This document shows positions 1,758 through 3,180 of a DNA stretch of 64,000 nucleotides, piece by piece. Source of the stretch: Eledone cirrhosa (taxonomy: Eukaryota). Where the stretch lies: NCBI GenBank assembly GCA_964016885.1, contig OZ024758.1, positions 18,662,001 to 18,726,000 on the forward strand, read 5' to 3'. Made by a program: the position numbers and the translations under genes. A model generated the notes under the pieces. That model did not search any database, was not told the origin of the DNA, and saw only the letters and a list, made by a program, of their open reading frames with translations. Within the stretch, counting starts at the first letter, position 1. Each line of letters starts with the position of its first letter.

Positions 1758-1839
<82 letters not shown>

Positions 1840-2096
1840 GTAGATATACATATATATTCATACACAAAAGTACATATATTTATTTACATATACCCATATA
1901 TTCATACACAAACGTACATATGTATATTTATATATACCCATATATTCATACACAAACGTACACATGTATATTTACATATACACATATATTCATACACAAA
2001 CGTACATATGTATAATAAACATTTTGAAGACCCAGTCGCTATAGAATAGAATACCTCACGTATTACAATTTGAGATTCTCGATAAAAGTAAGGGAA

Positions 2097-2139
2097 GTAA
2101 TCTACGCGTTTCATTCTTGTTAGAAATCTTCAGGATTAC
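2097..2139 (-). ncRNA. Type I hammerhead ribozyme (retrozyme unit 1)
   Basis: Minus strand: GUAAUC-CUGAAGA-UUUC UAACAA GAAU-GAA-ACGCGU-A/GAUUAC. Stem I is 6 bp and extends via 2076-2090 pairing with 2148-2162. Stem III is the palindrome ACGCGU. Confidence 0.9.
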
Positions 2140-2408
2140 ATATCCAATACTTTTATCGAGAACGACACAGCTAGAGACTTATAGAATACTTAGCTGTGTA
2201 CAGGAACTGGTTTGATAGAGCGGTAACCGGTCCGGCAGAAATTAGAATTTGGATTTAATGCTCTGAAATAGCGATATATATGTGAAGACAAACATAGAAT
2301 ATTCGAAAATATTCTGTATGTTTATAATAAACATTTTGAAGACCCAATCGCTATAGAATAGAATACGTCACGTATTACAATTTGAGATTCTCGATAAAAG
2401 TAAGGGAA

Positions 2409-2451
2409 GTAATCTACGCGTTTCATTCTTGTTAGAAATCTTCAGGATTAC
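2409..2451 (-). ncRNA. Type I hammerhead ribozyme (retrozyme unit 2)
   Basis: Identical motif 312 bp downstream. Confidence 0.9.
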
Positions 2452-2720
2452 ATATCCAATACTTTTATCGAGAACGACACAGCTAGAGACTTATAGAATA
2501 CTGAGCTGTGTACAGGAACTGGTTTGATAGAGCGGTAGCCGGTCCGGCAGAAATTAGAATTTGGATTTAATGCTCTGAAATAGCGATATATATGTGAAGA
2601 CAAACATAGAATATTCGAAAATATTCTGTATGTTTATAATAAACATTTTGAAGACCCAATCGCTATAGAATAGAATACGTCACGTATTACAATTTGAGAT
2701 TCTCGATAAAAGTAAGGGAA

Positions 2721-2757
2721 GTAATCTACGCGTTTCATTCTTGTTAGAAATCTTCAG
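2721..2757 (-). ncRNA. Hammerhead core (unit 3) with the stem I 5' arm lost at the insertion junction
   Basis: Same core, but the flank reads CAGGGGTAC instead of CAGGATTAC. Confidence 0.7.
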
Positions 2758-2970
2758 GGGTACATATGTATATTTATATATACCCATATATTCATACACA
2801 AACGTACATATGTATATTTATATATACCCATATATTCATACACAAACGTACATATGTATATTTACATATACCAACATATTCATACAGAAACGTACATATG
2901 TATATTTACATATACCCATATATTCATACACAAACGTACATATGTATATTTACATATCCCCCCCCCCCAC

Positions 2971-3016: not shown

Positions 3017-3180
3017 GGAGTGTAACTTGGAGTTACTGCAGGTTCACCCGGGTGAGCACTAGATTATATAGTCCGGTAAGATCGATACAGATCAAACCTT
3101 GAGCTGATCAGTGGCGAAACGCGCGTCACCTACCAATAAATGTAATGAAGGAGTAACCAATCGTCCTTGGTATCCTTTCA
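3017..3180 (+). mobile_element. Small TA-flanked element with a hammerhead 3' half (GAAAC-GCGC-GUC)
   Basis: GCTGATCAGTGGCGAAACGCGCGTC ends at 3127. Related copies lie at 17347-17478 and 57520-57680 (both minus). No intact CUGANGA box found. Confidence 0.5.

Follow-up and report, generated by a model that had tools for sequence, protein, structure and literature searches.

A dispersed 312-bp hammerhead retrozyme of Eledone cirrhosa and the Penelope-type signature of its insertion junctions

A stretch of 64,000 nucleotides from Eledone cirrhosa (contig OZ024758.1; hereafter the window) contains a short protein-free tandem repeat with hammerhead ribozyme motifs that interrupts a TA-rich minisatellite. 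The locus raises the question of how such a repeat entered the genome, which enzyme copied it and from which form of its RNA. An earlier note had described it as a young tandem retrozyme that would yield a 312-nt, possibly circular RNA. Here we follow up this description and report as the main finding a Penelope-type integration signature, which was absent from the earlier note.

The array and its predicted ribozymes

TRF placed a tandem array with a period of 312, 2.4 copies and 98% matches at 2011-2767, in agreement with the 312-bp tandem of 2.4 copies that had been claimed. The units of the array differ at four positions (2035/2347, 2055/2367, 2191/2503 and 2226/2538). The insertion, the predicted RNA and the target are arranged as follows.

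2011..2758, minus strand: single-arm retrozyme insertion, 2.4 units of 312 bp, with the 5' end at about monomer position 280 and the 3' end at position 92
2103..2414, minus strand: predicted 312-nt monomer between two cut sites, with position 1 at 2414
1786..2961 (1786-2014 and 2760-2961), no strand assigned: TA-rich 44-bp minisatellite interrupted by the insertion (TRF)
2002..2014, plus strand: left copy of a 13-bp flank duplication, the last 4 bases of which also match the 3' end of the element
2760..2772, plus strand: right copy of the 13-bp flank duplication

Because the target is a 44-bp minisatellite, the 13-bp duplication is ambiguous and its length uncertain. The 312-bp unit has no meaningful reading frame, with low-complexity stop-to-stop stretches at its edges only. 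An autonomous Penelope-like element (PLE) was rejected, as the unit encodes no open reading frame (ORF) with a reverse transcriptase (RT) and a GIY-YIG domain. A plant LTR retrozyme (LTRs, type III hammerhead, PBS/PPT and a 4-bp TSD) was dismissed on account of the type I topology, the tandem units and the lack of LTRs.

Three hammerheads were located in the array.

2388..2474, minus strand: complete type I hammerhead 1, with core 2445-2439, GAAA 2424-2421, cut 2415/2414 and a long stem I
2076..2162, minus strand: complete type I hammerhead 2, with core 2133-2127 and cut 2103/2102
2700..2757, minus strand: third, 5'-most hammerhead, with an intact core (2757-2727) and the 5' strand of stem I lost at the insertion junction

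On the minus strand each full unit carries CUGAAGA (2445-2439 and 2133-2127), stem II, GAAA, the palindrome ACGCGU and GUA at the cut. The claim of a full hammerhead in every unit holds for the two complete copies and fails for the third, which is likely inactive. A read-through transcript is predicted to release exactly one monomer, 2414-2103, as had been proposed, and the lost stem I of the third core agrees with this. The hairpins named in the earlier note were recovered in the computed fold together with the 15-bp distal stem I, which follows a 6-bp proximal stem I and an internal loop; the base of stem II is a U.U pair. The folding z-scores are -4.8 for the 86-nt ribozyme region and -4.25 for the 312-nt monomer, and 0 shuffles were as stable in either case. 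Stem III consists of one A-U pair with a palindromic tetraloop on top, and alone has no fold (0 kcal/mol), whereas two copies are calculated to form a 6-bp duplex of -9.5 kcal/mol. Since stem III folds only as this duplex, dimeric cleavage is likely from the folding energies, which fits the proposal that the palindrome serves cleavage between copies.

At the Rfam gathering score no match was found anywhere in the window, and Rfam HH9 matched both hammerheads weakly (20.2 bits against a cut-off of 52), so that the ribozyme call rests on motif, fold and family comparison. A comparison of about 81 insertion haplotypes showed changes in the catalytic core only at N7 (62/19), G5 (1) and N17 (2), and the distal stem I pair 14-266 is compensatory, with GC in 60 and AT in 18 haplotypes. 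The near-invariant core and this compensatory pair indicate that the predicted ribozyme fold is under constraint.

Four insertions (L203, L200, L125 and L206) have an A-to-G change at monomer position 312, the cleavage base, which converts GUA to GUG; in L203 it is present in 5/6 units and on both arms. A GUG site should not be cut, and it may be that the RNA acquired this change once it had been joined. Other type I hammerhead motifs, belonging to other repeat families, lie in the window at 29387 (plus strand), 33642 (plus strand) and 42438 (minus strand). Moreover, a hammerhead-like remnant at 3098-3133 (plus strand) has a palindromic stem III, a non-standard core and a score of 14.5 bits with Rfam Hammerhead_1, and a stretch similar to it was found in L209.

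Cervera and de la Pena described animal non-LTR retrozymes as non-coding tandem units of 150-450 bp with low GC content and type I hammerheads, occurring as dimers to multimers (PMC7229834). The element of E. cirrhosa is like these in its 312-bp non-coding tandem units, its low GC content, the type I hammerheads in two consecutive units, the self-paired monomer and its dispersal without LTRs. Judged by these features, it is an ordinary member of the described class. Its 1-bp stem III with a palindromic tetraloop resembles that of axolotl HHR_Amex1, which needs dimers, and its U.U base of stem II that of HHR_Amex2; in the same study both features belong to axolotl retrozymes that cut better as dimers. 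Circles and cleavage were demonstrated there, whereas for the retrozyme described here they are predicted from the DNA sequence.

A dispersed family with two fixed 3' end points

The earlier note had suggested a check for other genomic copies. In the 3.0 Gb searched, an exact 30-mer occurred 579 times and its reversed control 0 times. With the monomer as query there were 812 candidates, of which 40 were scored; these yielded 218 matches, the full-length ones being 97-100% identical. The copies sort into at least four subfamilies by shared variants, have no LTRs and end directly in TA tracts. The window array is one copy of a young dispersed family, and both the retrozyme identity and the youth ascribed to it were supported. 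Taken by itself, the window copy, which lies in a minisatellite and has atypical ends, could suggest a mere local duplication, or satellite DNA in which the hammerhead is dead or arose by chance. For the family this is refuted by the genome-wide copies, as hundreds of dispersed loci have fixed ends, fall into subfamilies, keep the core and include a compensatory change; we give such an origin practically no credence.

It had also been suggested to check whether other copies are circularly permuted. This is not the case, as the 5' ends are scattered over the unit and the 3' ends are fixed at two internal sites.

2274..2287, also 2586-2599 (monomer 128-141), minus strand: site A, family-wide 3' end point and putative start of reverse transcription
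2243..2248, also 2555-2560 (monomer 167-172), minus strand: site B, the other 3' end point used across the family, located in the A/C-rich loop of a predicted hairpin

A TA run within the element itself makes the exact base of site A hard to fix. In runs X1-X3, loose TA ends occur at 2274 and 2586; these runs consist of contigs from a single sample that has no library record. They may be the source of the assembly and do not count as independent support. A fixed internal start combined with random 5' truncation suffices to explain a non-integer copy number, and an uncut linear multimer gives the same result; the 2.4 copies, which had been read as a sign of a circular template, are therefore uninformative.

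On chromosome C1 every locus with the 30-mer was listed, which gave 31 loci with 57 arms. In the polarity of the ribozyme, 53/57 arms end at site A or B, nearly always followed by (TA)n. Head-to-head inverted arms were found at 26/31 loci, and the other five are single arms, all with a site A end. The inverted loci comprise 22 with one end at A and the other at B (A+B), 0 with A+A, 0 with B+B and 4 with one odd end. L141 and L142 have a common junction and were counted once, so that 21/21 independent standard pairs on this chromosome are A+B (p = 4.8e-7). On the forward strand alone there are 120 A-TA and 103 B-TA junctions, and 40 further loci, located by junction patterns, obey the same rule of one site per end. 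The pooled set of 84 insertions contains 60 A+B (9 of them preselected as pairs), 0 A+A, 0 B+B, 7 with one odd end, 14 single A and 2 single B arms. Among its visible 3' ends 140/147 lie at A or B, a proportion partly selected by junction pattern. L117, L197 and L206 were read by hand, and the set leaves out L141 and L208 as duplicates, L204 and L223 because they combine several insertions, and a 22-unit locus that was analysed apart. The latter is a 6.9-kb inverted insertion of 12 + 10 units (L233 7300 to L234 4165; G000:C1 about 440.783-440.790 Mb).

Five of the 14 single A arms (L016, L018, L143, L149 and L200) have their 5' end at 151-171, beside site B (p about 0.002, for an interval picked post hoc). 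This would fit a second target end that still engaged site B. The window copy is atypical and the sole pooled insertion without any standard end, as it uses neither site A nor site B and has its 3' end at position 92. As a rare single arm, it likely had its start at this position, in a minor TA-like site. The subfamily group to which it belongs has 19 insertions. Five of the seven non-standard 3' ends (L001, L013, L015, L025 and L133) are found in this subfamily (19/84 insertions), and targeting may be looser in it.

The window also holds a LINE with an intact APE and RT frame (974 aa; 23826-26750, minus strand) between two TA tracts, and a further instance of its 3' end lies next to L207. The repeat might be mobilised by a LINE that inserts into (TA)n, for example this one, with the inversions resulting from L1-style twin priming. 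In favour of this, the LINE has an open 974-aa frame and ends directly in (TA)n, and in L023 and L199 retrozyme arms are fused to pieces of LINEs. Twin priming involves a variable second priming site, and the arms meet near it. In contrast, the starts of the retrozyme are both fixed and internal and are paired one each, while the 5' ends are scattered. Furthermore, a word-size-7 search of the window revealed no similarity between the unit and the 3' end of the LINE, and the two-end pattern is present in PLEs themselves. Mobilisation by a LINE is thus improbable in our view.

A second, older and diverged retrozyme family with another hammerhead (1525 candidates; L032 2435-2880 and L081-L110) has kept the start-site region and both end points, with A+B in 11/30 loci. 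One stretch is common to both families.

2247..2354 (monomer 61-168), minus strand: stretch common to both retrozyme families, 76-82% over 62-97 nt, z = 26 against shuffles

As this region and the two ends are kept in the second family, monomer 61-168 is likely to be the binding site of a PLE protein, for which it is our candidate.

Penelope-like elements as likely partners

A partnership of retrozymes with PLEs was proposed in 2020 by Cervera and de la Pena, who named PLEs only as a strong candidate partner; the consulted parts of their paper contain no fixed ends, TA target or inverted arms (PMC7229834). Craig 2021 counted among the features of PLEs that they form partial tandems, carry an inverted copy truncated at its 5' end, bear a tail of 30-40 bp at one end and target (TA)n, and described the EN+ clades Neptune, Hydra and Naiad with a (TA)n target (PMC8557442). 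For the anole Poseidon element PAc, Frangieh 2024 reported that the PLE protein, a predicted dimer, cuts and extends both DNA strands, and that cDNA starts at two internal sites about 30 nt apart which bound the 'tail' (PMC11167929). The retrozyme is similar to EN+ PLEs in its two internal 3' end points about 30 nt apart, its inverted 5'-truncated arm, the tail at one end only and the (TA)n target. It differs from them in that it has no ORF and that its unit of 312 bp leads to several laps per arm. The rule of one site per end was counted here (21/21), whereas the PLE papers, in the parts consulted, place the tail 'often' at one end.

The genome of E. cirrhosa holds many GIY-YIG elements (Pfam RT and GIY-YIG; 150 of 10595 GIY-YIG candidates were scored). 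They include at least six young PLE families (L061, L063/L161, L064, L068/L179, L236/L237 and L262), several of which have long open frames of up to 1227 aa, and those checked have two fixed 3' ends about 60-110 nt apart. Protein-coding PLEs here form inverted pairs of a short and a long end in (TA)n (L066, L237-L239 and, in 4/4 cases, L264-L267). At L130 a retrozyme arm ending at A meets the 5'-truncated arm of a young PLE in a direct head-to-head join, and this PLE arm has the long end, which is what the rule of one site per end would lead one to expect. Copies of this PLE are 96-97% identical and in some cases have intact 1226-aa frames. L130 is the only clean retrozyme-PLE chimera found, and a deletion beside an older PLE could mimic its join. 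Other 5' joins to LINEs or other PLEs (L011, L023, L199, L205 and L207) can be target deletions or chance template switches. Since PLEs in this genome show the end pattern of the retrozyme and arms of the two element types meet in one insertion, PLE-driven target-primed reverse transcription of the retrozyme is likely.

Comparison of the retrozyme start-site region with eight PLE ends (A, B, C, D, E, H, I and a 778-aa Hydra-type family) gave no significant alignment, the best z being 2.6; single-protein searches for intact PLE frames covered two PLE families. Short look-alikes of sites A and B in the Hydra-type family are AT-rich and post hoc and were not counted. One PLE-type end in the window has a hammerhead. 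It forms a small inverted insertion at about 41850-42040 (core 41914, plus strand) with two different 3' ends in (TA)n, and a single copy lies at 28611 (minus strand); the family has 2654 candidates. Its hammerhead agrees with that of the retrozyme at 26/28 aligned positions (z = 7.6). No ORF could be linked to this PLE-type end, and a nearby Hydra-type frame was discarded as it belongs to a 3-kb element with another end.

In a recent preprint, Li, Clavereau and Pollet described retrozymes as non-autonomous derivatives of PLEs (10.64898/2026.07.22.740005). Our results agree with theirs on the proposed partnership, and the hammerhead here too resembles that of a PLE-type end. Their evidence consists of co-occurrence and pLTR homology in Xenopus, whereas ours comes from insertion junctions, and they attribute the arrays to local amplification, whereas the arrays described here appear to be made at insertion. 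In the openly accessible literature searched, which covered the 2020, 2024 and 2026 studies by their main texts, no report of fixed ends, inverted arms or junction evidence for retrozymes was found. The junctions provide strong genomic evidence for the proposed PLE partnership.

The template and the proposed route of insertion

Taken together, we are fairly confident that the element is a protein-free non-LTR retrozyme that ends at two internal sites in TA microsatellites and that a PLE supplies in trans the reverse transcriptase and endonuclease that copy it, probably from a self-cut and circularised 312-nt RNA. According to this proposal an array would be transcribed by read-through, for which no promoter was found. 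Adjacent hammerheads, the motif of which is present in the DNA, would pair via the palindromic stem III and are predicted to cut out monomers. A circularised monomer has one ribozyme and would thereby be protected from re-cutting. A PLE protein, a predicted dimer, would then cut both strands of (TA)n, and cDNA would be primed at A from one end and at B from the other; the target, the two sites and their one-each pairing are seen in the DNA, the enzyme is the presumed component. The cDNA would pass the cut site without stopping over up to 12 units, as the arm lengths show, presumably in laps round the circle. Finally, the two 5' ends would be joined head to head, and failure of one arm would leave a single arm. 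Both structures are observed, and the repair route is presumed.

The form of the template can be judged from the variants within and between insertions. Divergence amounts to 0.74% within arms, 0.76% between the arms of one insertion and 2.5% between insertions. There are 39 variants that are fixed in one insertion and present in at most 1 of its 7 nearest relatives, and in the 6.9-kb insertion private changes are fixed in 22/22 units on both arms. Within 4 nt of the cut site lie 3/148 5' ends, compared with 3.8 expected, and 0/264 junctions at the cut site have indels. Owing to the lack of a 5'-end excess and of junction indels, cut linear monomers are excluded as the usual template, and the same counts rule out run-off at cleaved 5' ends and end-to-end template jumping.

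The same PLE-driven insertion could instead use an uncut linear multimer or a multimeric circle from the source array, with a weak ribozyme and with monomer circles being rare or a by-product. A linear multimer also predicts no indels and no stops at the cut site. Frangieh 2024 reported that the anole PLE used uncut RNA as its main substrate in vitro and that the ribozyme was not needed (PMC11167929). Li, Clavereau and Pollet observed cleavage for 1/9 cloned Xenopus retrozyme dimers (10.64898/2026.07.22.740005), and the ribozyme studied here combines the 1-bp stem III with the U.U pair at the base of stem II. In addition, variants are mixed within arrays. Position 190 is mixed A/T within 8 insertions, and in one haplotype background an A there is confined to mixed arrays. 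Two variants are common to units 1 and 5 of L156, and 16 shared within-array variants were found in 11 insertions. To produce such mixed arrays, either the template must have been a mixed multimer or turnover must have taken place later. We did not favour a modified base at position 190, since the mixing clusters in one haplotype background.

On the other hand, new variants fixed across all units and both arms (the 39 cases and the 22/22 units) need a one-unit bottleneck at some generation. Moreover, no insertion pair has a run of unit-specific variants in common beyond chance. Two or more such variants were common to 5 pairs compared with 1.7 expected, 4 of them in an alignment-prone hairpin, and unit-specific variants were not passed between insertions beyond chance. 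Arms of 12 units would also require uncut transcripts of 3.7 kb, and the catalytic core is conserved. We consider a multimeric template possible but doubtful, and the sequence patterns moderately favour the monomer circle as the main template.

A-to-G changes make up 13/39 variants fixed within an insertion compared with 16/227 later single changes (p = 3e-5). Among the fixed variants A>G and T>C stand at 13 to 8, a strand bias that is not significant (p = 0.19), and A-to-I RNA editing of the template is only a lead. None of the RNA runs on record is listed with the retrozyme sequence. As a tentative extension of the monomer-circle proposal, a dimeric Penelope-type enzyme might copy one 312-nt circle both ways at once, starting at two fixed points, one per end of the cut TA tract, and continuing for up to 12 laps. 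An insertion would then be a multi-lap read of a single RNA and record its changes.

The route by which retrozymes enter genomes has been a hypothesis since 2020, and the support given in the 2026 preprint, as far as consulted, consists of co-occurrence and homology only. The junctions described here give a direct footprint of PLE enzymes in a retrozyme family, and one that can be counted. From them follow two bases at which cDNA should start and a one-site-per-end rule that can be put to the test in vitro with a template of 312 nt. If this template is a circle in nature, the family would represent a naturally occurring system of target-primed integration by rolling circle, in which the recognition region is defined and 110 nt long.
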